The notes below the pieces were generated by a model. That model had not been told where the DNA came from. It did not search any database and was given only the letters and a program-made list of their open reading frames with translations. DNA of 64,000 nucleotides from an uncultured Poribacteria bacterium (GTDB lineage Bacteria > Poribacteria > WGA-4E > WGA-3G): contig OX639992.1 in the NCBI GenBank assembly GCA_951828515.1, positions 1,706,561-1,770,560 of the forward strand, written 5' to 3'. The position numbers and the translations under genes were made by a program. The first letter of the stretch is position 1. Every line of letters begins with the position of its first letter. This document shows, in pieces, positions 20,613 through 35,453 of the stretch.

Positions 20613-20654
20613 AATACACTGAAAACTATTATAGCAGGAGGCGATAAATACAAT

Positions 20655-21620: not shown

Positions 21621-21740
21621 TTATCAGTTGTCAGTAAGAGCGATTTGTAACAATTCTCCCCAATTTGGAGTATTCCAGAGCGTGGTGAATTGTTACAGAT
21701 AGCCCCTTAACCGAAAGCCGATAACCGCAGACCGATAACC
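21621..21740. repeat. Heptad-arm palindromic intergenic element (copy 4) between convergent genes
   Basis: TTATCAGTTGTCAGTAAGAG ... inner stem TGTAACAATTC/GAATTGTTACA ... CCCCTTAACCGAAAGCCGATAACCGCAGACCGATAACC. It abuts both stop codons. Confidence 0.8.
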
Positions 21741-21742
21741 AT

Positions 21743-22792: not shown

Positions 22793-22852
22793 ATTCTTAA
22801 CTATCGTCCTTTACTACACGATCTGACTGTAGGTCAGATCATTGGAAAAATT

Positions 22853-23491
22853 ATGACCTCCAACGAGAATCAAGTTTCAGAGCACGCGCCTACAGAGGAA
22901 CAAGACTCTGAGCAGACACCTACGAATAAAGTCTTCAGAATCGTCTGTATGACGTTTTGCCTTGCAGTGACGGTGCTGTTTCTCTGGGTCTGGCATCATC
23001 AAACCCAGTTCAATGATCATTACCGGAAAGCAACTTTTCTGATGCGCAACGGTGAAGCCAAGCAAGCGATCGAAGCGTACCAGAAGGCAATCAAAAACAA
23101 GGCTCGCACCATCTTTTTCACCAAAGAACCGTCGGTTTACAATAACCTTGGGCAAGCCTATCTATACGACGAACAATATGCTCCCGCTGTTGAGAACTTT
23201 AAAAAAGTGATTGAGATGGCACCGAATATCGCGGAAGGCTACGTTAATCTGACCACCGTCTATCTCCGGCAGAATTTACCAACCGACGCGCGCGAGCGGT
23301 GTCTACGCGCCCTTCAAACCTTCCCGAAGACCGCCCTGCTTCATTACAACCTCGCATGCGCTTACGCGTTAGAGGGCGAATCCCAAAAATCGGTAGACTC
23401 GCTTACGCAAGCAGTAACACTTAACCCGGACCTCAAAGCACTTGCACAACGAGAGGACGCGCTTAAGGAGATTGTACCTGAACTTCCTTGA
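22853..23491 (+). CDS. TPR-repeat protein with N-terminal transmembrane segment
   Basis: The ATG at 22853 follows the divergent gene's start. There is a TM (IVCMTFCLAVTVLFLWVW) and several TPR-like units (AIEAYQKAI, NNLGQAYLYDEQYAPAVENFKKVIEMAPN, HYNLACAYALEG). Confidence 0.7.
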   Translation: MTSNENQVSEHAPTEEQDSEQTPTNKVFRIVCMTFCLAVTVLFLWVWHHQTQFNDHYRKATFLMRNGEAKQAIEAYQKAIKNKARTIFFTKEPSVYNNLGQAYLYDEQYAPAVENFKKVIEMAPNIAEGYVNLTTVYLRQNLPTDARERCLRALQTFPKTALLHYNLACAYALEGESQKSVDSLTQAVTLNPDLKALAQREDALKEIVPELP

Positions 23492-23519
23492 ATCTTGTGC
23501 TTTCATACAAACCAACAGA

Positions 23520-24035
23520 TCAATGCAGAACATTCGCTAACTTTCCACCACAGCGCGCCGTCTTAATCTCAAACGATTTGCCCCGGAAATGGACTTTTGA
23601 TTGGCTTTTGCTGAGTTGTCTGACCTCCGCTCTACTAATCCCATTATGAAATAAAACGGGATAGCAGACGCTTTTAACACTCCGCGGCGTGTAATCAATG
23701 GCAAAAGCAGCTCCGGCTTTTAACTGTTCCACTGCTTCTGATGCGTCAACATTACCGCCACCCTTGAGTTCTATTGGAACTACAATAAAGTTTTCTGTAT
23801 CATCGAAGTAGAAGAGAACGCACTCACACTGATTTTCCCCTTCTTGTCCACTCGGAAATACTGCGTCTAAATCCACGACAACTCGATCATTTTCTGAGAT
23901 ACCGGTTAGGTCTGCGCTACATCGCCCGCGTCTGAATGAGTTCCCGTTAAAAAGACTTTCTCTACCTACCTTATCCCGGATATTCTCAAGAATTTCACTC
24001 CTGCTCAACCTCGGTGCCTCCTGTTGCTTCTTCAA
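23520..24035 (-). CDS. Small PD-(D/E)xK-like protein of unknown function, partner of the upstream ATPase
   Basis: The only in-frame starts are TTG (24035 or 24008). The TTG at 24008 is preceded by AGGAGG with an 8-nt spacer. The candidate nuclease core is VVVDLD...VLFYFDD...FIVVPIELKGG (D ... E-x-K). It overlaps the ATPase stop by 14-41 nt. Confidence 0.55.
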   Translation of the reverse strand: MKKQQEAPRLSRSEILENIRDKVGRESLFNGNSFRRGRCSADLTGISENDRVVVDLDAVFPSGQEGENQCECVLFYFDDTENFIVVPIELKGGGNVDASEAVEQLKAGAAFAIDYTPRSVKSVCYPVLFHNGISRAEVRQLSKSQSKVHFRGKSFEIKTARCGGKLANVLH

Positions 24036-25470
24036 TTTGGGTTCGGAGGTCCACCGAACGATTGTAGAGTTTCTCAGCTACTTCTCCATACTCCTCCGGT
24101 TCTATGCCAGCGATGCGTTCAAATGGAATTTCTTTTACTGGTTCGCTTTCACGGAACCACCACGCACCAACCTCTTCCTTCGTCAACCAAGTTTCCGGTT
24201 CTGTTTTATTTTTTTCCAGTTTCATTACTTCACCCTCGCGAACCAAATTGCCAATTTGCTCAAGGAGCCAGTCGCTATGCGTCGTGATAATCACGCGGAC
24301 ACCAGCTCGAACCAAACGGGCAAGGGTTAGGGCAACCTTAGTTTGGGCAGCGGGGTGTAGATGGGCTTCAGGTTCTTCAATGACGAGCGTATCATTAGGT
24401 TGAATAATTCCACGTAAAAACAAGACAAGTGGGGCGAGTTCCGATACCATTGATGATGACCTACTCATTGATAGAGATTGCTTTGCCTGCTGTGGATGGT
24501 AACGGAATTCAGGGAATCCCGCTGCAGGTTCTGAAACTCTTATCTCTCCACGCAGCACATTTGTCTCCAGTGCTTCGGCGATCTCAAGTATTCTACCCGA
24601 GGACCTGTTTCTTACCTTGTAATTAATAATCTGTTTTAGAAAGTCCGCTATCACTCCTGAAAACGCTGGAACTTCAGACAGAGTTTCCAAACCGATACGG
24701 CTGTTGACAAAATCTATGAGAGAACTAGCAATCACACGACGGCTCTGCACGATGCCACCCCGAGCAGCAGGTAAGTAATGCAATTGCGAAGTCTCCCGCC
24801 CAGAAACACGAAAAAGTCGCATAAGATCTTCAAAATCCAGTGTTTCTTCCGGTCCCTCACCAGTCCCTGGTTTAAGAACTATGTCCTTGTTAATAAAACC
24901 GTTTACAATGGAATTGGAGTCAGAATCGTGCATGAGGTCAAAAGACCACAAGCACTGATCTCCTTCACGGACGTTTAGCGAAACTTCCATTTTATTCCGA
25001 GCATCACCGGTGAAGCGTATCAACTCTGAAATGGATTCCAAATCAAAACACCGTTGGAGTTCATCTTCAAAGGCTGTAGATTTCTTGAGATTAGATTCTA
25101 ACCAAGACCGCATCTGATCGGGTAAATCTGAAAACTTGAAGGGTCGTCCATGTGTATTCAGTTTTTCGAGCATTTCCATAGTTTCTACCTGTAGATCTAC
25201 CTGTTCTTGAATCTCCAGGGACCGACTTCGAGCGCGGTAAGCGAACCTTAAGTAAGAACTGGCCCTAGATGACCACGGAAATTGCGAAAACCCCTCAAAA
25301 CTTTGGTATAATGCATAGATGAGTGCGGCGAGATATGTCTTACCGGTATTGCTCTCACCCACAAAAACAGTCAGCGGACGCAGATCTATCTCCGCCTTTT
25401 CTATCGGTCCAAAATTCTCCACTGCAATATGGATATCTGGGTGCTGCCGTCCATGCTCGGTTTTTCGCAT
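23995..25470 (-). CDS. ABC/OLD-class (AAA_15/AAA_21-like) P-loop ATPase
   Basis: Walker A (VFVGESNTGKTY), a long helical insertion, a Q-loop-like YLPAARGG, Walker B (DTLVIEEPEAHLHP) and an H-loop (VIITTHSDWL). Confidence 0.8.
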   Translation of the reverse strand: MRKTEHGRQHPDIHIAVENFGPIEKAEIDLRPLTVFVGESNTGKTYLAALIYALYQSFEGFSQFPWSSRASSYLRFAYRARSRSLEIQEQVDLQVETMEMLEKLNTHGRPFKFSDLPDQMRSWLESNLKKSTAFEDELQRCFDLESISELIRFTGDARNKMEVSLNVREGDQCLWSFDLMHDSDSNSIVNGFINKDIVLKPGTGEGPEETLDFEDLMRLFRVSGRETSQLHYLPAARGGIVQSRRVIASSLIDFVNSRIGLETLSEVPAFSGVIADFLKQIINYKVRNRSSGRILEIAEALETNVLRGEIRVSEPAAGFPEFRYHPQQAKQSLSMSRSSSMVSELAPLVLFLRGIIQPNDTLVIEEPEAHLHPAAQTKVALTLARLVRAGVRVIITTHSDWLLEQIGNLVREGEVMKLEKNKTEPETWLTKEEVGAWWFRESEPVKEIPFERIAGIEPEEYGEVAEKLYNRSVDLRTQIEEATGGTEVEQE

Positions 25471-25503
25471 TGTTTTTTCCTGACACCGATGAATTTTAAA
25501 CCA

Positions 25504-25532
25504 ATTATACGTCTATTCCTACCTATTTGCAA
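25504..25532 (-). promoter_or_regulatory. Sigma70-type promoter candidate (TTGCAA-17-TATAAT) for the ATPase cassette
   Basis: Minus-strand TTGCAA (25532-25527), a 17-nt spacer, and TATAAT (25509-25504), about 34 nt upstream of the ATG at 25470. Confidence 0.55.
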
Positions 25533-25561
25533 CGAAAAATGGGCGAGAATGAATCCCGCCC
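25533..25561 (-). terminator. Rho-independent terminator candidate after the LamG gene
   Basis: The minus strand reads GGGCGGGATTCATTCTCGCCC followed by ATTTTTC. Confidence 0.5.
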
Positions 25562-25599
25562 ACCTCACTTAGAACAAACAGTGGATAGATATGCCAACA

Positions 25600-26388
25600 C
25601 TATCTTTTCAGCTTACCCCACACCGTCGCCAATTTGCCGCGGGCAGAAACATCAAGCGTATCGTTGATGATTTTCTGGATGTCTGCTTCAGAAAGTGCGT
25701 AGTTGGCTAACATTAATTCGTCGATTCTACCCTGAAAGAAACGCGGGCAGCATCCGTTATTTTCGCCACCGAATCGCAAAGACTTGTCTGGTCTGGTTAG
25801 ACCAGGCCCCTTCTGTGCGATAGCCGTACCATCGGATTCCCCATTAATATAAAAACGGGCTTCGCTACCATCCCAGGCAATGGCAACATGCGACCATTCT
25901 TTCGCCTTTATTTTCCCATCAGAAATATGGTAACCTGGACTACTGGTCTCGTAGAAGTAATAAGCAAGCTGTCCCGCACCCGGCTCAATTTGCAGATAGT
26001 AGGTGTTCTTGTAGAAAATCGTGAACTTGTTCTCCTGCCCACCCGCCGGAAGTTCGTCAGGGTAAACCCATGCCATCATCGTAATGGCTTCATCTATGTC
26101 GAGCTCATCGGAGTGTGCGACATCTATGAAATCGGCTTTACCGGCCTCACCAGCCATTTGCACGGCGTTCCCTGAAATGCCTTCAGCCCACTTCACATCG
26201 CCGTCGAATTCACCGACCAAACCAGCAGTCTCATCCTTAGCCTCTTTCCCTTTGCCTTCATCGAAATGCCAGACATATAACTTCTCGCCGAGCTGTTTCA
26301 CGTTACCTTTTCCGCCCGCAGCGTAACCCGCAAAGCAGAGAGATAGACTTAGAAAAACGCATAGCATCATCAAAATCTGGGTTCTCAT
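25600..26388 (-). CDS. Secreted LamG/concanavalin-A-like domain protein with C-terminal TVWGKLK tail
   Basis: Signal peptide (MRTQILMMLCVFLSLSLCFAG). LamG pattern (WHFDEGKGKEAKDETAG..., ITMMAWVYP, WSHVAIAWDGSEARFYINGE, GRIDELMLANYALSEADI). The tail is KLATVWGKLKR. Confidence 0.8.
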   Translation of the reverse strand: MRTQILMMLCVFLSLSLCFAGYAAGGKGNVKQLGEKLYVWHFDEGKGKEAKDETAGLVGEFDGDVKWAEGISGNAVQMAGEAGKADFIDVAHSDELDIDEAITMMAWVYPDELPAGGQENKFTIFYKNTYYLQIEPGAGQLAYYFYETSSPGYHISDGKIKAKEWSHVAIAWDGSEARFYINGESDGTAIAQKGPGLTRPDKSLRFGGENNGCCPRFFQGRIDELMLANYALSEADIQKIINDTLDVSARGKLATVWGKLKR

Positions 26389-26415
26389 TGGTGGTTCCTC
26401 CCTTTAGAATGAACA

Positions 26416-26441
26416 AAAGGGCGGGTCAAACCCGCCCCTTT
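26416..26441 (-). terminator. Rho-independent terminator candidate between the two LamG genes
   Basis: The minus strand reads GGGGCGGGTTTGACCCGCCC followed by TTTTGTT. Confidence 0.55.
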
Positions 26442-26503
26442 AGTAAACTTGGCAACAAGCAGGCATTGTGGCACTGCCGCTATGACAGAGAATATTTATT
26501 CAG

Positions 26504-27274
26504 TTACATTTTCAACTTGCCCCACGTTGTGGCAAGTTTATCCTTGGGCGATACAGCAAAATAAACGCCGTTTTCCATATCTTGGTTAATCTCGTCAACG
26601 GTGAGGGCGCGGTCATAGATGGCGACTTCATCAACCAAGCCAATCATACCGGGCAATCCCGTTTGTGCCTTACCGATACGGAAGACGACTTCAATGCTGT
26701 TAATTTCACCCTTCGGTGGTGCGAATTCAACATCTAATTTGCCGTCAATATATTGGCGAATCATATCACCATCGTAGGTAGAAGAAACGTGGTGCCACTG
26801 CTCCAAATCGGGTTTAATTGTCTGTTTATTCCGTGAACCTTTCCACCCACCGATGTTAATCCACGTCTCAATTTGCGGGGAACCCGTAAACTGAGCACTC
26901 CACTGAAGGCAATAGCCGCCAACGTTTGCAGAGCTTCTGCGTCCCATCAAGTTAGAGTCACCTTGGGATTCCTCAGGGAAAAACCATGCCTGAATCGTGA
27001 TCTCATCCGTAATGTCGAGTTCAGGAACTGCGTCAACCTCTACAAACTGTTCGGAAGCTTCAAGATGCACAGCACCGCCAATTTTACCGTCTTTCGACCA
27101 TACGGCACCTTCAAGGGTACCTTCGATGTTATTGCCACTTACATCTTTCACCTTGCCACCATCGTCTTCATCGAAAGTGAAATACAACATGAGCGCCTTG
27201 TCATCGTTTATTGCCCACGCATCGACACTAAGACTTAGTGCAATGAGGCAAAAAACTGTGATAATAGTTTTCAT
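26504..27274 (-). CDS. Secreted LamG/concanavalin-A-like domain protein with C-terminal TTWGKLK tail
   Basis: Signal peptide (MKTIITVFCLIALSLSVDAWA). LamG pattern (FTFDEDDGGKVKDVSGNN, ITIQAWFFP, WHHVSSTYDG, GLVDEVAIYDRALTVDEI). The tail is KLATTWGKLKM. Confidence 0.8.
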   Translation of the reverse strand: MKTIITVFCLIALSLSVDAWAINDDKALMLYFTFDEDDGGKVKDVSGNNIEGTLEGAVWSKDGKIGGAVHLEASEQFVEVDAVPELDITDEITIQAWFFPEESQGDSNLMGRRSSANVGGYCLQWSAQFTGSPQIETWINIGGWKGSRNKQTIKPDLEQWHHVSSTYDGDMIRQYIDGKLDVEFAPPKGEINSIEVVFRIGKAQTGLPGMIGLVDEVAIYDRALTVDEINQDMENGVYFAVSPKDKLATTWGKLKM

Positions 27275-27294
27275 AGTAGCGAGCTCCTTGTATT

Positions 27295-27434
27295 GGCTAT
27301 CGGCTGTCGGCAGTCAGCCGTCAGTGAAGAGGTCTTTCAGTAAAATCTACCCTGAGTTTGGAATATTCTGGACACGGGTGAATTGTTAGAAATCTACCTC
27401 TTTGCCGACTGCTGATAGCTGACCGCTGACGGCT
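27295..27434. repeat. Heptad-arm palindromic intergenic element (copy 5)
   Basis: GGCTATCGGCTGTCGGCAGTCAGCCGTCAGTGAAGAGGT ... ACCTCTTTGCCGACTGCTGATAGCTGACCGCTGACGGCT. Confidence 0.8.
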
Positions 27435-27436
27435 AT

Positions 27437-29071
27437 TTAGAATGAAGAAATCTGAATTTCCTTCGCCGTAATAAACTCAAGAAGCGCAGGAGTGCCTTCT
27501 TGCGTTTTTTGGATGCCGCGCTGAATAGCCGGGATAATTTGGTCAGGTGTTTCGACACGCTCACCGTAGCCACCGAACGCCTTCGCCATGTCTGCGTAGT
27601 GACCAGAGATGTCTGTACTACGGAATTTTTCGGTAGACACAGGCATGATCGGAATCTCAATCGCCATTGAGAAATTGTTGAAAAGTACTGACAAAATCGG
27701 GATTCTCTCACGCACAGCAGTCTCAAAATCCATGCCGGTAAAGCCGATAGCGGCATCACCCCAGACGTTGACACAGAGCGCGTCCGGTCTGGCGAGTTTT
27801 GCACCCATGGCGAGTCCGAGACCGTAGCCGAGCTGCGTCGTCTTGCCCCAACCGATATAAGTGAGCGGTGCGACAGACTGCCAGAAGGGCGACATTTGGT
27901 CGCGTGGACTCCCCGCATCGTGCGTAATAATCGTGTTGTTGACATCGACAGTGTGCAGTAGATCCGAGATGACGCGATACGGGGTCATCGGCACTTCATC
28001 CGAGGTGAGTTTCGCCTTCCACTGGTCGAGCCATTCCGCTTTAACCGCACTGATTTCTCCAGTGACAGCAGCCCTGCGCTCCTCGGATGCCCCGTTAGAA
28101 CGATCGCGAACGGCTTCTACCAAGCCATCTAAAATCAAACCTGCATCGCCAACGAGAGCGGTTTCAACGGGAACATCTTTGTTAATGTCCGCGGGATCCA
28201 ATGTCGCGTGGATAACCCGTTTTCCCTCGGGAATCCTGACACCGAAGCCAGTTCGGGTGAAACTGCACCCGATACCCAAAATCAGATCCGTTTTTTGAAG
28301 GAAGTGATGCACCGGTTTCGGAATCGCGCGTCCACCGGAACCCAATGCTAACGGATGATCTTCCGGGAATGCGCTTTTGCCACCCAAACTCGTTGTTACG
28401 GGTGCACCGAGCAGTTCCGCCAATTCTTTTAAAGAATCCCAGGCTTGGGCATAATGCACACCTTGTCCTGCGTAAATGACAGGACACTCGGCATCAAGTA
28501 ACGCCTCTGCAGCAGCCTCAATCGAAGCACTGTCAGGTCCGTAGCGCACGGTGGGTACCGGTGTCGGATCAAAGGAGTCGGAAATCTCTTCACCAAACAG
28601 ATCTGATGGGAATTCCACGAGTGCGGGGCGAGGTCTGCCGTTCCGGACTTGAGTAAAGGCACGTCGCATCGCTTCCGGGACAGCTTCAGGCATCGTGACC
28701 TGTTCACACGACTTCGTTACATGCCGATAGTTCAGGGCAGAATTGAAATTCGGTTGGATTTGCGTCATGCCCCGAGAATAGCCACCCGGCAGAACCACAA
28801 TCGGTGCGGAATCGCCATAGGCTTGGGCGACACCCCCGAAGGCGTTTTCGGAACCGGGTCCGCTCTGCATACAGAACACACCAATCTTCTCCCCAGAGGT
28901 TATCCGGCTCATAGCGTCTGCCATGTGAAGCCCAATACGTTCCTGTCTAACGATAATCGGACGGATGTCTAATTTCGCCGCCGCTTCGATGATCGGGTTA
29001 ACGGGATACGCAAACAGGTATTCGACTCCCTCTGCTTTAAGGACTTTTGCAACTGCATCAACAACTTTCAT
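27437..29071 (-). CDS. Thiamine-diphosphate-dependent enzyme (acetolactate synthase large-subunit-like family)
   Basis: MKVVDAVAKVLKAEGVEYLFAYP, SGPGSENAFGGVAQAYGDSAP and the TPP-binding GDAAIGF...N motif. The ATG at 29071 is preferred because upstream codons lie in repeat copy 6. Confidence 0.85.
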   Translation of the reverse strand: MKVVDAVAKVLKAEGVEYLFAYPVNPIIEAAAKLDIRPIIVRQERIGLHMADAMSRITSGEKIGVFCMQSGPGSENAFGGVAQAYGDSAPIVVLPGGYSRGMTQIQPNFNSALNYRHVTKSCEQVTMPEAVPEAMRRAFTQVRNGRPRPALVEFPSDLFGEEISDSFDPTPVPTVRYGPDSASIEAAAEALLDAECPVIYAGQGVHYAQAWDSLKELAELLGAPVTTSLGGKSAFPEDHPLALGSGGRAIPKPVHHFLQKTDLILGIGCSFTRTGFGVRIPEGKRVIHATLDPADINKDVPVETALVGDAGLILDGLVEAVRDRSNGASEERRAAVTGEISAVKAEWLDQWKAKLTSDEVPMTPYRVISDLLHTVDVNNTIITHDAGSPRDQMSPFWQSVAPLTYIGWGKTTQLGYGLGLAMGAKLARPDALCVNVWGDAAIGFTGMDFETAVRERIPILSVLFNNFSMAIEIPIMPVSTEKFRSTDISGHYADMAKAFGGYGERVETPDQIIPAIQRGIQKTQEGTPALLEFITAKEIQISSF

Positions 29072-29093
29072 TTTTTTAATGTTCCTTTTTTTC

Positions 29094-29206
29094 GGGCTGT
29101 CGGCAGTCAGCAATCAGCAGTCAGTTAAGGGTTTGTGGCAGTCGCGTTTTGCGTGAATTCCACAAATCTCTCTTTAACCGATAACCGATAACCAACAACC
29201 GATAAC
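29094..29206. repeat. Heptad-arm palindromic intergenic element (copy 6)
   Basis: GGGCTGTCGGCAGTCAGCAATCAGCAGTCAGTTAAGGG, inner stem TTTGTGG/CCACAAA, then CTCTTTAACCGATAACCGATAACCAACAACCGATAAC. It runs up to the neighbouring stop codon. Confidence 0.85.
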
Positions 29207-30021
29207 TACTTGGCATTAGAACTCGTAGGCACACCGTCATTCATCACAAGTGGAAAATGGTCGCCTGCTAATTTATCACCATCGTTGACGGCAACAAAAG
29301 GTTTCATAACATGGTTTCCGCTGGCATCGTATAGCGTCTCATCTGTCATATAATGCACCGCAATCGCACGCCGAGGGTTATCGCTTGTGTTGTCATGCGA
29401 TCCGTGCCACGTTAAGGAATGATGGTAATGGACATGTCCTTTCGGTACAGGGCAGAACTCTACCTCTAATTCGTTATCTTCAAAGCGATCCGGCATAGAA
29501 TGGATGTCCTTGACGGAATGCAGGAACGGAATCTGATTGCCCCAATGGTGAGAACCACGAACCATACGCATACATCCATTACCTTCATCAACATCATCCA
29601 ACGCAACCCAAGCCGATACCTGACTCGTTTTCGGGGTAAGGATTGGCCAATAAGGTGAATCTTGGTGCCACATGTTGACGCCACCAACATGCGGCGGTTT
29701 GTATTGAATCTGATCATGCCAGACCCGCAACTCTGTCGCTGACATCAGTTGTCCAATATCTTCGACAATCACCGGATTGTGAACGAGTCGGTGATAGGCA
29801 GAACTCGCCTCCCAAATATTAACGACTTGCCAGACCGGACTCTCTTCTCTGCCGCCGAGATTGACGATATGCACCGGCTGCGGAACATCGGTTTTCTCGT
29901 AATCATCAATAACACGTGCCAATTCCGAACGCAACGCCTCAACCTGCTTATCACTTAAAACACGGTTACCGAGGAGGAACCCTTTTTCACGAAATGTGTC
30001 AACCTGGGTTTGGTTGAGCAT
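29206..30021 (-). CDS. Phytanoyl-CoA dioxygenase (PhyH) family protein, tandem paralogue 1
   Basis: LNQTQVDTFREKGFLLGNRVLS, WHQDSPYW (H-x-D) and LTWHGSHDNTS. It is strongly similar to the adjacent gene. Confidence 0.8.
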   Translation of the reverse strand: MLNQTQVDTFREKGFLLGNRVLSDKQVEALRSELARVIDDYEKTDVPQPVHIVNLGGREESPVWQVVNIWEASSAYHRLVHNPVIVEDIGQLMSATELRVWHDQIQYKPPHVGGVNMWHQDSPYWPILTPKTSQVSAWVALDDVDEGNGCMRMVRGSHHWGNQIPFLHSVKDIHSMPDRFEDNELEVEFCPVPKGHVHYHHSLTWHGSHDNTSDNPRRAIAVHYMTDETLYDASGNHVMKPFVAVNDGDKLAGDHFPLVMNDGVPTSSNAK

Positions 30022-30047
30022 ATCTGTCTCCTATAGATAGAAAAGAT

Positions 30048-30860
30048 TTATATGTTGGGTTTTGTCGGTTCTCCAGCATCCATCACAAGCGGAAAATGGT
30101 GTCCCGCTAATTTATCACCACCATTGATGGTAACAAAACGTTTCATGATGTGAGTGCCATCCTTATCGTAAAGGGTTTCACCCGTCATATAATGCACGGC
30201 AATTGCACGTCTGGGTCCATCACTGGTGTTGTCGTGCGATCCGTGCCATGTCAAGGCGTGATGATAATGGACATGTCCTTTCGGCACAGGACAGAGTTCC
30301 ACTTCCAATTCGTTACCCTCAAATTGATTCGGCATCGAATCGATGTCTGGAACCTCCCGCAAAAATGGCATCTGGCTTCCCCAGTGATAGGAACCGCGGA
30401 CCATGCGCATACATCCGTTGCTCTCATCAACATCGTCCAACGCAACCCAAGCCGATACCTGACTCGTTTTCGGGGTGAGAATCCCCCATAACGGTGAATC
30501 CTGATGCCAGCGGTTCACACCACCGACCTGTGGCGGTTTGTACTGGATCTGGTCGTGCCAGACGCGCAACTCTGTTGCCGACATGAGTTGCCCAATCTCT
30601 TCGACAATCAATGGATTGTGAACCAGTCGGTGATAGGCAGAACTCGCCTCCCAAATATTGACGATCTGCCAGACTGGACTCTCTTCCTTACCGCCGAGAT
30701 TCGCAATGCGCACGGGTTGCGCAATATCGGTTTTTTCATAGTCATCAATAACACGCGCCAATTCCGAACGCAACTCGTCGACTTGTTCATCACTTAAAAC
30801 ACGGTTTCCGAGAAGAAAGCCTTTTTTACGAAATGTGTCAACCTGAGTTTGATTAAGCAT
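30048..30860 (-). CDS. Phytanoyl-CoA dioxygenase (PhyH) family protein, tandem paralogue 2
   Basis: Collinear with 29206-30021 over the full length (by eye roughly four-fifths identical); same H-x-D and distal His motifs. Confidence 0.8.
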   Translation of the reverse strand: MLNQTQVDTFRKKGFLLGNRVLSDEQVDELRSELARVIDDYEKTDIAQPVRIANLGGKEESPVWQIVNIWEASSAYHRLVHNPLIVEEIGQLMSATELRVWHDQIQYKPPQVGGVNRWHQDSPLWGILTPKTSQVSAWVALDDVDESNGCMRMVRGSYHWGSQMPFLREVPDIDSMPNQFEGNELEVELCPVPKGHVHYHHALTWHGSHDNTSDGPRRAIAVHYMTGETLYDKDGTHIMKRFVTINGGDKLAGHHFPLVMDAGEPTKPNI

Positions 30861-30887
30861 ATTTTTTAATGTTCCTTTTCATTGACA

Positions 30888-30992
30888 ATCGGTTATCGGT
30901 TAAAAGAGGATATTTTGCTGTCGGGTGTTTCCCTTGTTAAACGAAAACCTCTTAACCGACGACTGACGACTGACAACCGACAACCGACAACC
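30888..30992. repeat. Heptad-arm palindromic intergenic element (copy 7)
   Basis: ATCGGTTATCGGTTAAAAGAGGATATTTTGCTGTCGGGTGTTTCCCTTGTTAAACGAAAACCTCTTAACCGACGACTGACGACTGACAACCGACAACCGACAACC. The core is nearly identical to copy 10. Confidence 0.85.
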
Positions 30993-31000
30993 ATTTTCCT

Positions 31001-32035
31001 TTACGCACCAACTATCCTATCCCTGAGTTCCACCCACTCCTCGTCGGAGAGTTTCGGGGGCCACGCAATCCGTTCACCGATGAGTGCGGAGCGATACGCC
31101 GCCATAATCAAATCAAACCCAAGCATCGCGTACTCTAACTTATTGCGATGTGGTTGATTTTCGTCATCGAGCCATGTAGCAATCGCTTGCGTAAAGTCGC
31201 GCTGTCCGAATTTGTCATCTTCGCCGAAGTGGGTTTCCTCAACAAAATGCTCTGTCATACCGTCAAACTGATAGCCCCATGAACCGTTTTCTCGCCACCA
31301 CAGTCTGCCTTTCGTCCCCCAAAAATCGAGGTTGCACCGTGGATTACTACCGGGGAAATCAATGGTTCCGAACGCTGTCCGTGCAGACTCAAAAAAGACG
31401 CGGGCACCGTTCTCGAACGTATAAATCGCCATCAAATCTTCGGGGCATTGCCGATGCGGGATGTGATAGGTTTCTGCACCCTGAACGGCACCCCACACGT
31501 GTGTGATCGGAATGTCTTTCAGGGCGAAAAGCACAACGTCCATCAAGTGCGTATCCATATCGGTAATATCGCCCTCGGTGCAAGCACGAATGAAGTGTAT
31601 GTCGCCGAGACTATCGTCAGCAAAAAACTCTAATAATTTTTCAGCAAATGGCAGATATCGTCGTTGATGATTGACGATAATTTTTAATCCCGTTTTCTCG
31701 TACGCTGCAGCGAGTGCTTCCGCTTCGCTGGGTCTGAGCGCAAGTGGTTTTTCTATCACTAATGCTTTAACACCCGCTTCAGCGGCAGGTTCTACCCAGA
31801 TATGCCGCGGCACCGTCGGTTCTGTGACAGCATGAATAATATCGGGTTTCTCCTTTTCCAACATCTCGACGTAATCTGTGTATCCGGGGATGTTTAGTTC
31901 TTCTACCGCTGCTTTTAACCGTTCCTCGTCAAGTTCGCAGATGGCAACCACCTTCATATTTTCGATGCCTTCATAACGTCGGGCATGGTGTACACCCCGT
32001 CTTCCGCCAACGATCCCAGTTCGATACATTCCCAT
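31001..32035 (-). CDS. Gfo/Idh/MocA family oxidoreductase
   Basis: MGMYRTGIVGGRRG...MKVVAICEL and the EKPL motif (VIEKPLA). The start at 32035 is preferred because the candidate promoter at 32104-32132 would exclude the ORF's upstream Met at 32098. Confidence 0.8.
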   Translation of the reverse strand: MGMYRTGIVGGRRGVHHARRYEGIENMKVVAICELDEERLKAAVEELNIPGYTDYVEMLEKEKPDIIHAVTEPTVPRHIWVEPAAEAGVKALVIEKPLALRPSEAEALAAAYEKTGLKIIVNHQRRYLPFAEKLLEFFADDSLGDIHFIRACTEGDITDMDTHLMDVVLFALKDIPITHVWGAVQGAETYHIPHRQCPEDLMAIYTFENGARVFFESARTAFGTIDFPGSNPRCNLDFWGTKGRLWWRENGSWGYQFDGMTEHFVEETHFGEDDKFGQRDFTQAIATWLDDENQPHRNKLEYAMLGFDLIMAAYRSALIGERIAWPPKLSDEEWVELRDRIVGA

Positions 32036-32103
32036 AATGTGCCTCCTCGTTGAAGCGTGCAGTTTGCCGGTTTCCCATATTCTACCAAACGCTTTCACAC
32101 CGT

Positions 32104-32132
32104 ACTATAGCATCTTTAAAACTTTATGTCAA
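32104..32132 (-). promoter_or_regulatory. Sigma70-type promoter candidate (TTGACA-17-TATAGT)
   Basis: Minus-strand TTGACA (32132-32127), a 17-nt spacer, and TATAGT (32109-32104). Confidence 0.5.
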
Positions 32133-32388
32133 TCAGTTAGTCTTTTGTCCGAGTAAATAGTATACGCCACACCGACGGGAAACGCAAGTGTTTTACGTAC
32201 GGAGACATAGGTTGTCGGGGTTAGAAACCCCTCCCACAAGAGTGCAGCAGCCGTATGTGTGTTGAGACAGAAACCCATCCCCATAGAAAGAGTTACACCC
32301 CAGAGCCCATCCCTACAGCGAAGGGATCTCTACTGGAAGATCGAAAATATAGGAGAACTAAATGGTTCTAATTGACGCGTTTTCTTTA

Positions 32389-32417
32389 TTGTCAAATTCA
32401 CGCCCTTGTGTTACAAT
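32389..32417 (+). promoter_or_regulatory. Sigma70-type promoter candidate (TTGTCA-17-TACAAT)
   Basis: TTGTCA at 32389-32394, a 17-nt spacer, and TACAAT at 32412-32417, 40 nt upstream of the ATG at 32457. Confidence 0.5.
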
Positions 32418-32456
32418 GCAACAGACTAAGTTAATTCACTTTCTGGGGAGGGTTAT

Positions 32457-33584
32457 ATGAAAATTGATAAAATTGAGTCGTTTTTTATTGGGAACGGCTA
32501 TGTAATTCGGATCCATACGGATACCGGTATCAGTGGCGTGGGACAGACCGCTTGTTGGGGTTACCCAGAAGCTGTTGATAGCATCATCAACACGTTTAAG
32601 AAACATCTCATTGGACAGAACCCGTTGCGGATTGAGCATCACTGGCAATATCTCTACCGTATGGGTCCATTTCGTGGAACCGCGCTGAGCGGTGCTATTA
32701 GTGCGGTGGACATCGCCTTGTGGGACATCAAGGGCAAACATTTCGATGTCCCGATTTGGGAATTGTTAGGCGGGAACTGCCGCGATAAAATCCGACTACA
32801 CCTCCTCGGCGGCGGCAGCACACCGGAAACGATGTATGACGCAGCGAAGGCGGCTGTCGAAGAAGGTTTTACGGCACTCAAGTTTGATCCAGTGGTCGGA
32901 AACTTCCAAGACATGACAGTTGATCGTCTCGTCAAGACCGCTCGTGACATTGTAGCGGCGGCTCGAGAAGGCGGTGGACCGGATCTCGATCTGATTGTTG
33001 AAGTGCATCGGAAACTGACACCGATGAATGGCATCCTGCTGGAATCGGCTCTCGCACCGTTTAATCTCTACTTCATTGAAGACCCAATCCAGATCGATAC
33101 TATTACAACACAAGGGGAATTAGCGAAAAGGATGACAACCCCTCTCGCTATCGGTGAACGCAATGTAAGCATCTGGGAATTCCGCGAACTCCTTGAAGCA
33201 GGCGGACCGCAATATGTGCGCCCCGACCTCGGCTTGGCAGGTGGCATAACGCACTGTAAGAAAATCGCGGCACTTGCTGAGGCGTATCACAGTGCGGTTG
33301 TCACGCACAACTTCCTTGGACCACTCATTACCGCGGCATCGCTTCACTTAGATACAAGTATCCCGAACTTCATCACTCAGGAATATACCAAGGGCGATGA
33401 ATCCGAAGCTTTTGCTGTCTATAAAGTCGCATATCAACGGGAAGGTGGATACATTCCAATACCTGAAGCTCCAGGCTTAGGCATTGAACTTGACGATAGT
33501 TTAATCGAAAAAACGCCGTACCAACCAATGAACACCGGCAGGACACCTCTGCGTGAAGACGGCTCTGTCGCTTACGCAGTCTAA
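32457..33584 (+). CDS. Enolase-superfamily dehydratase (mandelate racemase/muconate lactonizing family)
   Basis: MKIDKIESFF...IHTDTGISGVGQ, AISAVDIALWDIKGKHFDVPIWELLGG and FIEDPI. It is a paralogue of 10341-11477. Confidence 0.85.
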   Translation: MKIDKIESFFIGNGYVIRIHTDTGISGVGQTACWGYPEAVDSIINTFKKHLIGQNPLRIEHHWQYLYRMGPFRGTALSGAISAVDIALWDIKGKHFDVPIWELLGGNCRDKIRLHLLGGGSTPETMYDAAKAAVEEGFTALKFDPVVGNFQDMTVDRLVKTARDIVAAAREGGGPDLDLIVEVHRKLTPMNGILLESALAPFNLYFIEDPIQIDTITTQGELAKRMTTPLAIGERNVSIWEFRELLEAGGPQYVRPDLGLAGGITHCKKIAALAEAYHSAVVTHNFLGPLITAASLHLDTSIPNFITQEYTKGDESEAFAVYKVAYQREGGYIPIPEAPGLGIELDDSLIEKTPYQPMNTGRTPLREDGSVAYAV

Positions 33585-33675
33585 CAGCAGTCAGCCATCA
33601 GCATGCTTCGCAGTGAGAACTATCAGACAAGAGCTCTTTGGTAAAGTGTCGTTTTTTGATCGCTGAACGCTGAAG
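33585..33675. repeat. Heptad-arm intergenic element (copy 8, more diverged)
   Basis: CAGCAGTCAGCCATCAGC begins immediately after the stop codon. The right arm is GATCGCTGAACGCTGAAG. Confidence 0.55.
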
Positions 33676-33756
33676 ATTGATACGGAGTGATAGACCCCCA
33701 GCTAAAGCATGGGGGTTTTGACACCGAAGTTTGATAAAGAAGTGGAGGAATCGAAC

Positions 33757-34557
33757 ATGAATGCTGACGAAAAATATCTATTCGATCTGAATGGTTACCT
33801 CGTTGTCAAGAACGTGCTAACACCCGAAGAGGTAGCAATAGCGAATGAAGCGATTGATAAACATAGCGAGCAAGGACGCATCCGTCCACGCGAACAGGCA
33901 CTCGATGGCGGCTCCCCGGAATTAAAAGGTGAGCAGGGCAGAGCGGAACTCGGCGGTATGCTCAATTGGGAGGAACCGTGGTGTAATCCGTTCCGACACA
34001 TGCTTGCACACCCGACACTCATTCCTTATCTCAATGAAATATTGGGAAAAGGGTTTCGAATGGATCATCAGATGTTCCTGCTTTCAATGGACAAGGGTGC
34101 AGAGGGGCATACGTTCCATGGCTCCTCCGGTCCTGGTTTCGATCCGAACCAATACTATATTTTCCGTGACGGACGTATGCACAACGGCTTGACTGTCGTT
34201 ACATTCCAATTGACGGATGTGCCACCCGGAGCGGGTGGGTTAATCGTTATACCGGGAAGCCATAAGAGCAACTACCCGTGTCCGCAAAAGATGCGGCTTT
34301 ACCAAGAACACCAAGAGAACATCCGACAACTCGTCTGCAACGCCGGCGATGTGGCAATCTTCACGGAGGCGGTGACGCACGGAACACTTCCGTGGACAGC
34401 CGACCATCCGCGCCGCTCCATTCTAACCCGGTATACCGCAGGCAACATGGCGTATGTTCCTGCCTATGAAATACCGGAATGGGCAAATGAGCGACAGCGT
34501 GCTGTCATGGAACCACCTTATCATTCGCGATTAAATCGTCCCACCTTGGAAACATAG
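33757..34557 (+). CDS. Phytanoyl-CoA dioxygenase (PhyH) family protein, tandem near-identical copy 1
   Basis: MNADEKYLFDLNGYLVVKNVLT, PGSHKSNYP and FTEAVTHGTLPW. It is 266 aa if started at the ATG at 33757. Confidence 0.8.
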   Translation: MNADEKYLFDLNGYLVVKNVLTPEEVAIANEAIDKHSEQGRIRPREQALDGGSPELKGEQGRAELGGMLNWEEPWCNPFRHMLAHPTLIPYLNEILGKGFRMDHQMFLLSMDKGAEGHTFHGSSGPGFDPNQYYIFRDGRMHNGLTVVTFQLTDVPPGAGGLIVIPGSHKSNYPCPQKMRLYQEHQENIRQLVCNAGDVAIFTEAVTHGTLPWTADHPRRSILTRYTAGNMAYVPAYEIPEWANERQRAVMEPPYHSRLNRPTLET

Positions 34558-34652
34558 GAAGGTTTTTAATTTATGGGATCCTGGACTGCGCTCTGCTCCG
34601 CTTACGCGCAGGTTTCTGGTGAGGTCGCAACTGAAATAAGGAAAGTTAAAAT

Positions 34653-35453
34653 ATGAATGCTGACGAAAAATATCTATTCGATCTGAACGGTTACCTCGTT
34701 GTCAAGAACGTGCTAACACCCGAAGAGGTAGCAATAGCGAACGAAGCGATTGATAAACATAGTGATCAGGCACGCATCCGTCCACGTGACCAGACGCTTG
34801 ATGGTGGCTCTCCGAAACTGAAAGGGGAGCAGGGCAGAGCGGAACTCGGCGGTATGCTCAATTGGGAGGAACCGTGGTGTAATCCGTTCCGACACATGCT
34901 CGCGCATCCTACACTTGTTCCCTATCTCAATGAGATATTGGGAAAGGGCTTCCGTATGGATCATCAAATGTTTCTGCTTTCAATGGACAAAGGGGCAGAA
35001 GGCTTCATTTTCCACGGATCTTCAGGTCCCAGTTTTGATCCGAATCAATACTATATTTTCCGTGACGGACGCATGCACAACGGCTTGACTGTCGTTACAT
35101 TCCAATTGACGGATGTGCCACCCGGAGCGGGTGGGTTAATCGTTATACCGGGAAGCCATAAGAGCAACTACCCGTGTCCGCAAAAGATGCGGCTTTACCA
35201 AGAACACCAAGAGCATATCCGACAACTCGTCTGCAACGCCGGCGATGTGGCAATCTTCACGGAGGCGGTGACGCACGGAACACTTCCGTGGACAGCCGAC
35301 CATCCGCGCCGCTCCATTCTAACCCGGTATACCGCAGGCAACATGGCGTATGTTCCTGCCTATGAAATACCGGAATGGGCAAATGAACGCCAGCGTGCTG
35401 TCATGGAACCACCCTATCATTCGAGATTAAATCGTCCCACCTTGGAGACGTAG
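34653..35453 (+). CDS. Phytanoyl-CoA dioxygenase (PhyH) family protein, tandem near-identical copy 2
   Basis: It differs from 33757-34557 at 10 of 266 residues by manual alignment. The C-terminal half has a single difference. Confidence 0.85.
   Translation: MNADEKYLFDLNGYLVVKNVLTPEEVAIANEAIDKHSDQARIRPRDQTLDGGSPKLKGEQGRAELGGMLNWEEPWCNPFRHMLAHPTLVPYLNEILGKGFRMDHQMFLLSMDKGAEGFIFHGSSGPSFDPNQYYIFRDGRMHNGLTVVTFQLTDVPPGAGGLIVIPGSHKSNYPCPQKMRLYQEHQEHIRQLVCNAGDVAIFTEAVTHGTLPWTADHPRRSILTRYTAGNMAYVPAYEIPEWANERQRAVMEPPYHSRLNRPTLET

Follow-up and report, generated by a model that had tools for sequence, protein, structure and literature searches.

The window analyzed, a stretch of 64,000 nucleotides (64 kb) from the genome of an uncultured sponge symbiont of the Poribacteria, contains hairpin-shaped repeats of about 100 bases, the arms of which are composed of 7-base units and which dot the intergenic gaps. 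The first-pass annotation listed 11 such loci as one hairpin family, and the sequences at all 11 coordinates agree with the layout described there. These 11 loci form a single modular family with the formula 5'-(RTYRKYN)2-5, AAGAGG-like inner stem, exchangeable core, CCTCTT, (complementary units)2-5-3'. The copies beginning at 9323 and 56382 reach past their listed bounds, to about 9455 and about 56505, respectively, since the right arm of each contains nested small hairpin modules.

Element 1 (9323–9455) contains a left arm of GTTGTCA/GTTATCG units (9323–9347), an AAGAC...CCTCTT inner stem with CCTCTT at 9391–9396, and a right arm (9397–9415), followed by the nested mini-hairpin GAAAGGTTTTTCTACGAAAAACC (9416–9438) and complementary-type units to about 9452; the TAG stop of the gene 8155–9324 overlaps its first unit, and its folding z-scores are −4.7 on the plus strand and −3.5 on the minus strand (other z-scores are given below in this order). 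Element 2 (e19388, 19351–19478) is represented by outer partial forward units (19351–19366), a left arm of the GTCAGCC type (19390–19415), AAGAGG (19418–19423), the minimal core TTTTCGTTTAAAAACACC and a right arm (19447–19478), with z of −4.8/−6.1. Element 3 (e20486, 20486–20612) consists of a left arm (20486–20517), AAGAGG (20518–20523), a core with the TTTTGCCGGGGTGTTTC block and a right arm (20590–20612). Element 4 (21620–21742), with a long GATTTGTAACAATTC/GAATTGTTACAGATAGC stem as its core and z of −5.8/−4.4, spans the entire interval separating the convergent genes 20655–21620 (+) and 21743–22792 (−). In element 5 (27291–27436; z −6.8/−4.7), a left arm of five units (27291–27326) and AAGAGG (27327–27332) are separated by the core from CCTCTT (27397–27402) and the right arm (27403–27434). 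Element 6 (29094–29208), the copy on which the first-pass annotation centered, contains GTCGGCA/GTCAGCA units in the left arm (29099–29126), an AAGGGT head, a TTTGTGG...CCACAAA core stem, CTCTTT and a right arm of TAACCGA units (29176–29206); the stop of the gene 29206–30021 (−) overlaps its last unit, and z is −3.2/−5.0.

The arms of element 7 (e30888, 30888–30994) comprise two units on the left vs. five on the right, with AAGAGG at 30904–30909 and CCTCTT at 30948–30953; its core, the TTTTGCTGTCGGGTGTTTCCC block plus the minimal core, is by eye about 94% identical to that of element 11, the arms of the two being different. Element 8 (33585–33675) is a weak copy with a left arm at 33585–33603, a nested GCTTCGCAGTGAGAAC module, a degenerate right arm at 33656–33675 and z of −0.7/−0.8. 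Element 9 (50275–50354; z −3.4/−1.9) has a left arm (50276–50306), AAGAGG (50309–50314), a short core and a right arm (50337–50354). Element 10 (56382–56505; z −1.9/−1.2) includes a degenerate left arm, the core module TTTCTGGTGAAGTGA, a right arm (56447–56469) and the nested module GACGCGAGCCGCGTGTAGGCTCGCGGGAC (56471–56499). Element 11 (63821–63939; z −3.1/−3.8) is represented by a left arm (63821–63845), AAGAGG (63848–63853), the TTTTGCTTGGGTGTTTCCC block with the minimal core, nested CTCACTGCGAGGCAAAC (63908–63924) and a right arm reaching 63939. Among the three partial arms listed earlier, that at 7911–7940 (AGATAAC CGATAAC TGATTCC) is a genuine solitary arm of the complementary type, the partner arm being absent; that at 18707–18730 is too degenerate to call, and that at 34563–34640 does not belong to the family. 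The latter represents a separate repeat family (TTTTAATTTATGG..CCTGGAC..TTTCTGGTGA), further copies of which are located at 18562 and 49082.

A period scan of the window revealed nine runs of period 7 and zero to one run for each other period from 4 to 12; the period-7 runs are not due to chance. Arrays of at least three units matching RTYRKYN number 18 in the window vs. 0.46 expected from Markov shuffles, and arrays of period 7 were reported by Tandem Repeats Finder for 7 of the 11 elements (13 of 24 rows, one of them a 14-nt double unit). Forward arrays are located on the left and complementary arrays on the right in every element of the window. The same polarity was found in 934 kb of Poribacteria DNA, which contain 120 forward..reverse arrangements, 39 of them independent of the search pattern, vs. 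8 reverse..forward, 11 forward..forward and 9 reverse..reverse. In the TAACTGA register, the commonest units of these 120 elements are CAACTGA (87), TAACTGA (73) and TAACCGA (51); tandem TAACCGA, TGACTGC and CAACCGA are present in the window. The RTYRKYN units contain no G-runs and are degenerate, with 92 distinct heptamers among 773 units. Within the search pattern, which itself imposes T at position 2, G accounts for 79% at position 1 and C for 70% at position 6, and position 7 is nearly free. Likeness between copies in the window is seen in sub-modules, a 24-nt arm of elements 4 and 11 (96% complementarity) and a 47-nt core-block stretch (91%); since no two near-identical full-length copies are present there, no recent burst is visible. 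Nested hairpin modules were also found in other genomes, with their orientation relative to the arms unchanged, and the orientation of cores relative to transcription is mixed in the window.

The elements are located between a stop codon and the ribosome-binding site of the next gene, or a convergent stop, and occupy 11 of the approximately 41 intergenic gaps of at least 40 nt in the window. Starts at 0–5 nt after stop codons had been reported; the proximity to stops holds, and the range runs from overlap with the stop codon (TA|GTTATC at 9323, 21620 and 29206) to about 6 nt past it. The left arm of element 3 even lies inside a coding region, that of the inositol-monophosphatase-family gene 19500–20519, whose product takes its 10 C-terminal residues (AVSSQQSAVG*) from this arm. 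Arms begin at a median of 2–6 nt after stop codons and end about 10–25 nt (median 12–23 nt) ahead of the next predicted start. A scan of 185,579 species for the arm-plus-head pattern gave matches almost solely in Poribacteria MAGs. Two further matches came from a cultured gammaproteobacterium, Peristeroidobacter agariperforans KA5-B, and a separate scan matched two viral contigs; in both hosts the layout is retained, with units adapted to GC content. No further element was found in the 5.5 kb beyond the window available from contig L216, and a blastn search of 72,556 plasmids with element 1 as the query returned nothing.

Comparison with related strains revealed rapid turnover. In L216, which is 99.4% identical to the window, the only indel in 15.2 kb is one 7-nt arm unit, an extra CGGTCTG in the left arm of element 11; element 9 is identical, and element 10 differs by three SNPs. 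In L001, with about 90% identity, six elements are comparable: three are missing or have unrelated DNA in their place, a fourth is built anew around a gene, and two are kept in altered form. Element 2 is absent or different in L001 and in the runs X1 and X2. Element 3 is absent from L001, where a 35-nt spacer and another protein C-terminus were found, and in run X1 its arms are kept, with the core swapped for a different one of 35 nt. The arms of element 4 in L001 flank a 1.3-kb insert bearing a gene that is absent from the window, and run X7 contains 136 other letters in place of this element. Element 5 of L001 carries a 20-nt deletion, with loss of the inner CCTCTT; the same site is occupied by another core in L002 and by an empty 40-nt spacer in L005. 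A 30-nt nested module is inserted in one arm of element 6 in L001, the element of L002 being diverged, and the site of element 7 in L001 has been taken over by another repeat family, with 115 unrelated nucleotides that include the 'leader' repeat. Other strains, represented by the runs X1, X2, X7 and X14, swap out exactly the element intervals. The presence/absence polymorphism in relatives that had been proposed as a check is confirmed, with elements absent, replaced or supplied with another core in L001, L005 and the X runs. This natural series of strains, from 80% to 99.4% identity, comprises single-unit gain, core swapping, nested insertions and wholesale replacement.

On both strands, eight of the 11 elements fold with far lower energies than their dinucleotide shuffles (z about −3 to −7). 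A signal limited to one strand was found for elements 3 and 7 (minus only) and element 9 (plus only), and elements 8 and 10 fold weakly on both strands (z −0.7 to −1.9). No arm-to-arm covariation was detected in the window (permutation p = 0.75–0.88). RNAalifold returned no pairs and no consensus structure for 23 canonical copies, after which the register for the counts on these copies was set by hand. In this register, pairing accounts for 73.6% of cells vs. 74.7 ± 0.8% with the 3' partners shuffled, and the covariation score is 0.210 vs. 0.225 for shuffled partners. The pairing register itself is real, since a shift of the partner by 1–3 columns leaves only 23–47% pairing. Permutation of cognate arms within genomes gave 0.754 vs. 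0.725, and comparison between genomes revealed a weak cognate-arm signal (p = 0.006 and 0.03). The number of units in one arm does not correlate with that in the other (r = −0.19). Register-free lag-7 identity is 0.78, barely above the cognate-arm identity of 0.75–0.77. The unit-by-unit comparison (5.3 of 7 within arms vs. 4.3 between arms) was dropped, because it is confounded by unit register.

No strand preference in folding was found, the sense RNA being more stable in 38 copies and the antisense RNA in 39 (Wilcoxon p = 0.69). No T-tract follows the elements, as only 0–3 T were counted within 8 nt downstream of nine of them. In a terminator scan of 18500–34800, none of the seven whole elements was called; the sole call inside an element, at 20545–20559, corresponds to a six-pair sub-hairpin of the core of element 3. 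Rfam identified only a tRNA in the window and no structured-RNA family at the elements. RNA contigs of relatives extend into element arms, these being assembled contigs of strains 90–97% alike, the exact strain of the window being absent from the RNA runs. These results argue that the RNA structure of individual copies is not what is maintained, which points the search for an explanation to a DNA-level process or a sequence-reading factor. A canonical terminator is located at 26414–26442.

Genes and signatures of a mobilizing system were also searched for. Flanking direct repeats average 1.73 vs. 1.62 ± 0.11 in shuffled pairings, indicating no target-site duplication, and the flank logo represents a decaying extra unit with no distinct terminal motif. 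Pfam annotation of the 56 window ORFs with coding potential revealed no Y1_Tnp/RAYT or other transposase domain. As for features of MITEs, inverted arms are present and likeness between copies is limited to sub-modules (91–96%). A gene of IS605 OrfB was found in at least one Poribacteria MAG (L214). The gene in the 1.3-kb insert between the arms of element 4 in L001 encodes a T5orf172/MUG113 (GIY-YIG-like) protein. It was considered as an autonomous partner and rejected as an ordinary syntenic single-copy gene: four other Poribacteria, with 51–69% identity, also have it at this ADH-GFO junction, and every sequence cluster of it is located on only a few contigs. Other Poribacteria carry the gene between these two arms as well; it was therefore lost by the lineage of the window. 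Integron attC sites, brought to mind by the heptamer core GTTRRRY, were likewise rejected, as the polarity runs the other way and the neighbors are housekeeping genes in synteny.

Among the long simple repeats of bacteria, tandem heptamers show the strongest over-representation, and to our knowledge their origin and function are still unexplained after more than 30 years. The Poribacteria repeats are akin to kinds known from cyanobacteria, Xanthomonas and giant sulfur bacteria. The first-pass annotation could not assign the family; this is now superseded, as the units can be placed in a published heptamer class, TAACTGA/STRR, and pairs in convergent orientation were described in Xanthomonas. 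TAACTGA intergenic direct repeats were found in marine Beggiatoaceae, some Cyanobacteria and Bacteroidetes (MacGregor 2015, Front Microbiol, PMC4679880; Flood et al. 2016, PMC4853749). Similar to this class, TAACTGA is the second commonest Poribacteria unit, the others being the one-letter variants CAACTGA, TAACCGA and AAACTGA; sets comprise 2–6 units, are intergenic, face the downstream start in forward orientation and occur occasionally in frame within ORFs. In the published sets, however, 169 are direct and one is inverted, and most end a few nucleotides from the start codon (PMC4679880), whereas the Poribacteria arrays are nearly always inverted pairs around a core (120:8), end about 10–25 nt before the start and mix many unit variants within one arm.

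GGGAATC arrays of Xanthomonas campestris and X. axonopodis are tandem heptamers, 89–93% of them intergenic; the upstream ORF, about 28 nt away, is nearer to them than the downstream ORF, and their variation was ascribed to slippage (Rehm et al. 2015, PLoS One, PMC4692102). The same authors report 70–75 loci with two convergent arrays on opposite strands, capable of forming a stem-loop, and extensive length and sequence variation among close relatives (PMC4692102). The Poribacteria arrays share with them, as described there, the convergent arrangement on opposite strands, the intergenic location nearer to the upstream ORF and the variability between relatives. They differ in the unit, which is G-rich and quadruplex-forming in Xanthomonas (PMC4692102) and of TCAGTTA/GTCAGCA types without G-runs in Poribacteria. 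The passages of PMC4692102 make no mention of an AAGAGG/CCTCTT stem, exchangeable cores or nested modules. The host phylum is also different.

Cyanobacterial STRR (short tandemly repeated repetitive) heptanucleotide sequences were reportedly described by Mazel et al. in 1990, with the units CCCCAGT, TTGGTCA and CAACAGT (STRR1-3), and we know of no report of the AAGAGG/CCTCTT head motif for STRR. According to passages of PMC2670836, STRR hairpins are present between hupS and hupL, with transcript stability or translational coupling proposed as their role; like them, the Poribacteria elements are composed of tandem intergenic 7-bp units able to form hairpins between co-oriented genes. The host phylum differs, and no tandem dimers of STRR1-3 were found in the window. 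Small dispersed repeats (SDR) nested in other repeats of Nostoc are said to have been described by Elhai et al. in Genome Research in 2008. Such nesting is also mentioned in PMC4390886 and resembles in form that of the hairpin modules of about 17–30 nt, GAAAGRTTTTTC..GAAAAAYC, GACGCRAGCCGCGTGT..GCGGGAC and CTCACTGYGAGGCAAAC, inside the Poribacteria heptamer arms. One presence/absence case and the recurrence in other genomes suggest that these nested modules are mobile. REP/BIME and REPIN of Enterobacteria and Pseudomonas are defined by GTAG/CGTC tags and a linked RAYT gene. The Poribacteria elements are likewise abundant, intergenic, palindromic and mosaic, follow stop codons and lack target-site duplication; however, REP/REPIN stems have no heptad periodicity, the Poribacteria arms do not appear by eye to be REP units of 20–40 bp, and no RAYT gene is present within the window. 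None of the papers searched joins 'Poribacteria' with 'heptamer'.

In their fast change, the elements behave like selfish or neutral repeat DNA and not like tuned RNA switches or terminators. We consider it somewhat more probable than the contrary that they are DNA-level selfish or near-neutral modular foldback repeats, with arms stepping by 7 nt, dispersed by a mobilizing activity or recombination. The seed is a palindrome in which an inner AAGAGG/CCTCTT stem encloses an exchangeable core hairpin, and it is flanked by arms of 2–5 tandem, inward-pointing units of the TCAGTTA/TAACTGA family. As a lineage-wide non-coding repeat, the element occupies the spacer from the stop codon to the next ribosome-binding site; whole elements, cores and small nested hairpin modules are gained, lost and exchanged between loci, and ectopic recombination among copies may add to the dispersal. 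Arm length also changes in steps of 7 nt, as polymerase slippage would give. The arms would be complementary only because both sides draw on the same unit family, the mRNA hairpin would be a by-product that is not individually selected, and single copies would probably have no function. The elements are probably tolerated since none of the frames is closed by the forward arm, and the head and complementary arm carry stops; therefore, insertion at the 3' end of a gene would swap just a few C-terminal residues. Against this reading, no target-site duplication or defined terminal motif was found, the window contains neither near-identical full-length copies nor a transposase, the one candidate partner gene, T5orf172, proved to be an ordinary one, and a weak cognate-arm signal exists across genomes. 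A sequence-read function would also be consistent with the high regularity of placement, with the conserved AAGAGG/CCTCTT stem of SD-like and anti-SD-like sequence and with the occurrence of the architecture in a gammaproteobacterium and viral contigs.

The first-pass annotation proposed bidirectional terminators or mRNA stabilizers, and a related reading is that the elements are RNA-level cis-elements, the mRNA hairpin of which protects 3' ends, pauses or terminates transcription, or couples or uncouples translation of neighboring genes. In favor of it, the hairpins show both length and stability (z to −6.8), are consistently placed just past stop codons and ahead of ribosome-binding sites, and are transcribed, as the arms occur in RNA contigs of relatives; an SD-like AAGAGG pairs with an anti-SD-like CCTCTT in the inner stem, and a role in transcript stability or translational coupling was proposed for 7-bp-repeat hairpins in the passages cited above (PMC2670836). 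The compensatory changes between arms that this reading predicts, the lack of which the first-pass annotation had named as refuting, were looked for and not found, nor were an RNAalifold consensus structure, a sense-strand folding advantage or a T-tract. Arm lengths are unequal and uncorrelated, core orientation is mixed relative to transcription in the window, RNA contigs enter the arms, and junctions lack, re-core or replace the element in strains with 90–97% identical genes; accordingly, the proposal of terminators or stabilizers is not upheld, and RNA-level cis-elements in general appear rather unlikely. Binding arrays for a factor with a 7-nt footprint (a cold-shock/S1-type OB-fold protein on RNA or ssDNA, or a polar DNA protein or transposase), with the hairpin being secondary, would account for the strict inward polarity of units, which pairing alone does not demand, for the preferences at positions 1 and 6 within the search pattern, with position 7 nearly free, and for the sharing of unit family and head with distant hosts; binding of S1, Csp or CsrA was proposed for TAACTGA arrays (MacGregor 2015, PMC4679880). 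However, no protein emerged as a candidate or was linked to the arrays, unit sequence is highly degenerate, arms are gained and lost between close strains with no visible consequence, and outward unit-step expansion from a palindromic seed explains the polarity equally well, so we regard such arrays as improbable.

The footprint of a mobilization system, also proposed earlier, is borne out as far as gain, loss, replacement, core swapping and nested modules are concerned, and not as regards target-site duplication or a transposase in the window. A more specific version is that the elements are REPIN-like, non-autonomous and moved as ssDNA hairpins by a RAYT/IS200-type Y1 transposase encoded elsewhere in the genome. 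Their hairpin-forming, intergenic nature, presence/absence polymorphism, the lack of target-site duplication, which Y1 transposition predicts, and the IS605 OrfB gene in at least one Poribacteria MAG (L214) are consistent with it; nevertheless, it is very improbable, as the window ORFs contain no Y1_Tnp or other transposase domain, the arms are tandem heptamers and not 20–40-bp REP units, and near-identical doublets are absent. A further, more far-reaching reading is that the polar architecture represents a single cross-phylum class and not a peculiarity of Poribacteria, (TCAGTTA-type)n, AAGAGG, loop, CCTCTT, (TAACTGA-type)n, read or propagated by a conserved putative machine, for which a single-strand- or structure-specific DNA enzyme and a protein with a 7-nt footprint are candidates. 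This reading is speculative and seems unlikely; if true, the copies in P. agariperforans KA5-B and in two viral contigs would make the class experimentally tractable and would suggest phage-borne spread.

The Poribacteria version of heptamer repeats is unusually dense and well-structured, with about one quarter of the intergenic gaps of the window occupied. Metagenome assemblies are broken at the elements, which also shift protein C-termini and stop codons and can mislead gene callers and RNA-motif hunts in uncultivated Poribacteria; the same layout in a cultured gammaproteobacterium provides a route to experiments. Core blocks were found outside heptamer arms as well: the window contains a stand-alone TTTTGCTTGGGT(A/G)TTTC block at 8062–8091 (+) and further stand-alone copies at 44795–44824 (−) and 49308–49341 (+).

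Reading of all 11 intervals confirmed the layout described in the first-pass annotation for the heptamer-armed hairpin elements (CAGTCAGCAG-type hairpins), which are located at 9323–9455, 19351–19478, 20486–20612, 21620–21742, 27291–27436, 29094–29208, 30888–30994, 33585–33675, 50275–50354, 56382–56505 and 63821–63939 (elements 1–11, respectively). In each, 7-nt units of general form RTYRKYN (GTCAGCA, GTCGGCT and GTTATCG types) make up the left arm, which is followed by an AAGAGG-like head, a core that varies, CCTCTT and a right arm of complementary units. The right-hand limits of elements 1 and 10 had to be extended, as their arms contain small nested hairpin modules; of the supposed partial arms, 7911–7940 is a solitary complementary-type arm, 34563–34640 belongs to another repeat family, and 18707–18730 is uncallable. 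Period-7 arrays were detected by Tandem Repeats Finder in 7 of the 11 elements; a neutral period scan of the window revealed nine period-7 runs versus 0–1 for every other period from 4 to 12, and 18 arrays of at least three units were observed in the window versus 0.46 expected. Eight elements fold much more stably than their dinucleotide shuffles on both strands (z about −3 to −7); the same holds for elements 3 and 7 on the minus strand only and for element 9 on the plus strand only, and folding of elements 8 and 10 was weak on both strands. A tRNA was the sole Rfam match in the window, the heptamer elements being unrecognized.

The gene content of the window is represented by ordinary metabolic and housekeeping genes, including those for peptidyl-tRNA hydrolase, ribosomal protein L25, GFO/IDH/MocA oxidoreductases, PhyH dioxygenases and a TPP enzyme. 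The elements fill 11 of approximately 41 intergenic gaps of at least 40 nt. Their siting directly after stop codons, previously given as 0–5 nt, holds, with a range from overlap with the stop codon (TA followed by GTTATC) to about 6 nt beyond it; the 3′ limit lies just ahead of the ribosome-binding site of the next gene or, if that gene is convergent, at its stop codon. In a larger sample of 934 kb of Poribacteria DNA with 120 elements, ascertained via one arm-plus-head pattern, arms start a median of 2–6 nt past the stop codon and end a median of 12–23 nt ahead of the predicted start, a distance that depends on gene starts predicted from the longest ORFs. Both tandem and convergent gene pairs host elements, as had been proposed, and so do divergent pairs. 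The left arm of element 3 is coding: an inositol-monophosphatase-family protein takes its 10 C-terminal residues, AVSSQQSAVG, from it (20486–20519), with the TAA of the head as stop codon. The protein of a relative with approximately 90% identity ends in SVLKALAKL instead.

In the larger sample, the forward–reverse arrangement of units was found 120 times and its mirror 8 times, with 11 and 9 same-sense pairs; 39 of the 120 elements are independent of the ascertained pattern match. Both arrangements form hairpins equally well; therefore, the polarity belongs to the element and not to pairing. The canonical minimal form consists of arms, (A)AGAGG, a loop of about 20 nt (T-rich, TTAA, A-rich, in this order) and CCTCTT. 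Larger cores contain added modules that also occur alone, such as the TTTTGCTTGGGTGTTTC block, found by itself at 8062, 44795 and 49308. Hairpin modules of approximately 17–30 nt, namely, GAAAGRTTTTTC..GAAAAAYC, GACGCRAGCCGCGTGT..GCGGGAC and CTCACTGYGAGGCAAAC, are nested inside arms in constant orientation.

Three units joined to the head, a pattern for which about 2 chance matches are expected in 596 Gb, were sought in 185,579 species, each represented by one genome, and at least 118 stretches matched. Among the matches listed, about 111 come from named Candidatus or uncultured Poribacteria MAGs, 4 from two other MAGs and 2 from the cultured gammaproteobacterium Peristeroidobacter agariperforans KA5-B, and 1 is a likely chance match. 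The layout is complete in the Peristeroidobacter copies (contigs L099, 7923–8000, and L189, 6842–6948), with units that are rich in G+C: (GGTTGGC)n, AAGAGG, loop, CCTCTT, (GCCAACC)n. The same polar layout was found in viral (IMG/VR) contigs L199 (529–632) and L200 (732–812). No arrays of at least three units were found in 797 kb around TPP enzyme homologues of other lineages.

The comparison of relatives proposed in the first-pass annotation showed that elements are lost, replaced or altered. Contig L216, from a 6.35-Mb assembly, is 99.4% identical to the last 15 kb of the window, with 89 differing positions in 15.2 kb; it has a single indel, in element 11, the left arm of which is longer by one 7-nt unit. 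In contig L001 (approximately 90% identity), elements 2, 3, 5, 6 and 7 differ: element 3 is absent, the protein C-terminus differs and a ‘leader’ repeat precedes the next gene; element 2 is either missing or different; in place of element 7 there are 115 unrelated nucleotides, which carry the ‘leader’ repeat; element 5 is shorter by 20 nt, including the inner CCTCTT; and element 6 has an extra 30-nt nested module in one arm. In contig L002 (approximately 81%), elements 5 and 6 keep their positions, with different cores or units; in contig L005 (approximately 76%), the site of element 5 is empty, consisting of a 40-nt spacer. In DNA runs of other samples, the replaced stretches are exactly the element intervals 19348–19556, 21620–21737 and 27289–27437; one run retains the arms of element 3 with a different, minimal core. 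No target-site duplication was detectable at the elements.

In L001 (17047–18453), a 1.3-kb stretch with a T5orf172/MUG113 (GIY-YIG-like) gene separates the two arms of element 4. This gene lies between ADH-like and GFO/IDH/MocA genes in most Poribacteria examined (including contigs L210, L212, L213 and L214); in the window lineage the junction lacks it and contains element 4 (21620–21742). Accordingly, the gene is lost in the window lineage, and arms and core now close the gap. T5orf172 as an autonomous element was rejected, the gene being present at the same junction in four other Poribacteria at 51–69% identity; each T5orf172 sequence cluster occurs on few contigs only. IS3, IS605-OrfB or DDE transposase genes adjoin the gene in contigs L213–L215, so the junction looks like a hot spot.

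Compensatory change between arms, the test set in the first-pass annotation, was not detected in the window: the arms of one element are no more complementary to each other than to those of other elements (p = 0.75–0.88), and non-cognate arms can fit far better (element 11 left versus element 4 right, 96%). For 23 canonical copies in one register, 73.6% of cells are standard pairs versus 74.7 ± 0.8% with 3′ partners shuffled, and 462 of 500 shuffles reach the observed pairing; moving the partner register by 1–3 columns lowers pairing to 23–47%. Since the shift lowers pairing but the shuffle does not, the register is real and complementarity is wholly at the family level. RNAalifold found no consensus structure. 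Across genomes the cognate-arm excess is small (0.754 versus 0.725, p = 0.03, within-genome permutation), as expected if whole copies share descent. The number of units in one arm does not correlate with that in the other (r = −0.19).

A role at the RNA level, in stability, coupling or pausing, is considered unlikely. Contigs assembled from sponge metatranscriptomes of related strains, with the exact strain absent, continue from coding sequence into heptamer arms, which weakly suggests that the elements are transcribed without an obvious stop; RNA of the sense strand has no folding advantage (sense versus antisense, 38 versus 39 of 78, p = 0.69). The suggestion that the elements are terminators was not borne out, as no T-run lies downstream of any element and a terminator scan of 18500–34800 calls none of the seven whole elements there. 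A canonical intrinsic terminator with a 13-bp G+C-rich stem and a T-run was found after the Laminin_G_3 gene (26414–26442, minus strand); the organism therefore has ordinary terminators distinct from the heptamer elements.

On balance we lean towards a DNA-level foldback repeat, selfish or nearly neutral. A palindromic seed (head stem and core) would be dispersed and exchanged between loci, and each side, independently of the other, would gain or lose the terminal heptamer by whole units, as expected from slippage. Such a process would account for the fixed polarity, for unequal, uncorrelated arm lengths with complementarity at the family level only, and for mosaic modules, fast turnover and alike cores beside dissimilar arms, as in elements 7 and 11, the cores of which are approximately 94% alike by eye. 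That the heptamers form arrays read by a factor of 7-nt footprint appears rather improbable. Mobilization specifically of the RAYT type is very improbable; no transposase domains were found among window genes.

Among known heptamer systems, the Xanthomonas GGGAATC repeat forms convergent pairs of tandem heptamers, which are intergenic, near the upstream ORF and variable between relatives (PMC4692102). The TAACTGA unit occurs in Beggiatoaceae, Cyanobacteria and Bacteroidetes, mainly as direct repeats ahead of start codons (PMC4679880; PMC4853749); in cyanobacteria, the interval between hupS and hupL contains hairpins built from 7-bp STRR units (PMC2670836). The commonest units of the 120 elements, in the published register, are CAACTGA, TAACTGA and TAACCGA. 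The Poribacteria elements differ from these systems in host phylum and density, the conserved AAGAGG/CCTCTT inner stem, and exchangeable cores and nested modules. No published mention of heptamers in Poribacteria was found in the literature searched.

Other dispersed repeats were found in the window. The ‘leader’ repeat CCGCAAGG(A/T)A..ATTAAAA(T)ATG abuts start codons of many unrelated genes (8130–8157, 10325–10347, 14620–14645, 18763–18793, 49371–49403, 54892–54920, 63260–63309 and others) and is tandemly duplicated at 63260–63302; since in L001 it occupies spacers holding heptamer elements in the window, the two families compete for one niche. A third, post-stop family, TTTTAATTTATGG.ATCCTGGAC...GGTTTCTGGTGA, is present at 18562–18651, 34558–34640 and 49082–49190, and its TTTCTGGTGAAGTGA piece doubles as a core module in heptamer-armed elements (element 10; contigs L140 and L191). 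A perfect 25-nt inverted pair, GCTGGCGAGGTTTCTAACCTCGCCT, lies at 855–879 and 53241–53265, each copy being a small hairpin itself (GGCGAGGTT..AACCTCGCC); a similar GGGGTTAGAAACCCC is present at about 32245, making these another small dispersed hairpin repeat.

What looks like a variable, defence-like islet lies at 23364–25610: these 2.2 kb encode an AAA_15/AAA_21 (AbiEii-like) ATPase and contain a 171-aa ORF, and in their place the run X7 strain has 163 different letters. The cluster 1109–7275, encoding an IrrE/M78 peptidase with an HTH domain, a DUF499 protein and a PIN-domain protein, with adjoining long non-coding stretches and two ORFs without a Pfam match, is possibly a defence or toxin–antitoxin island. 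Genes of the PhyH family number at least seven in the window and include two tandemly duplicated dioxygenase gene pairs (29206–30860 and 33709–35453) with 78–91% DNA identity.
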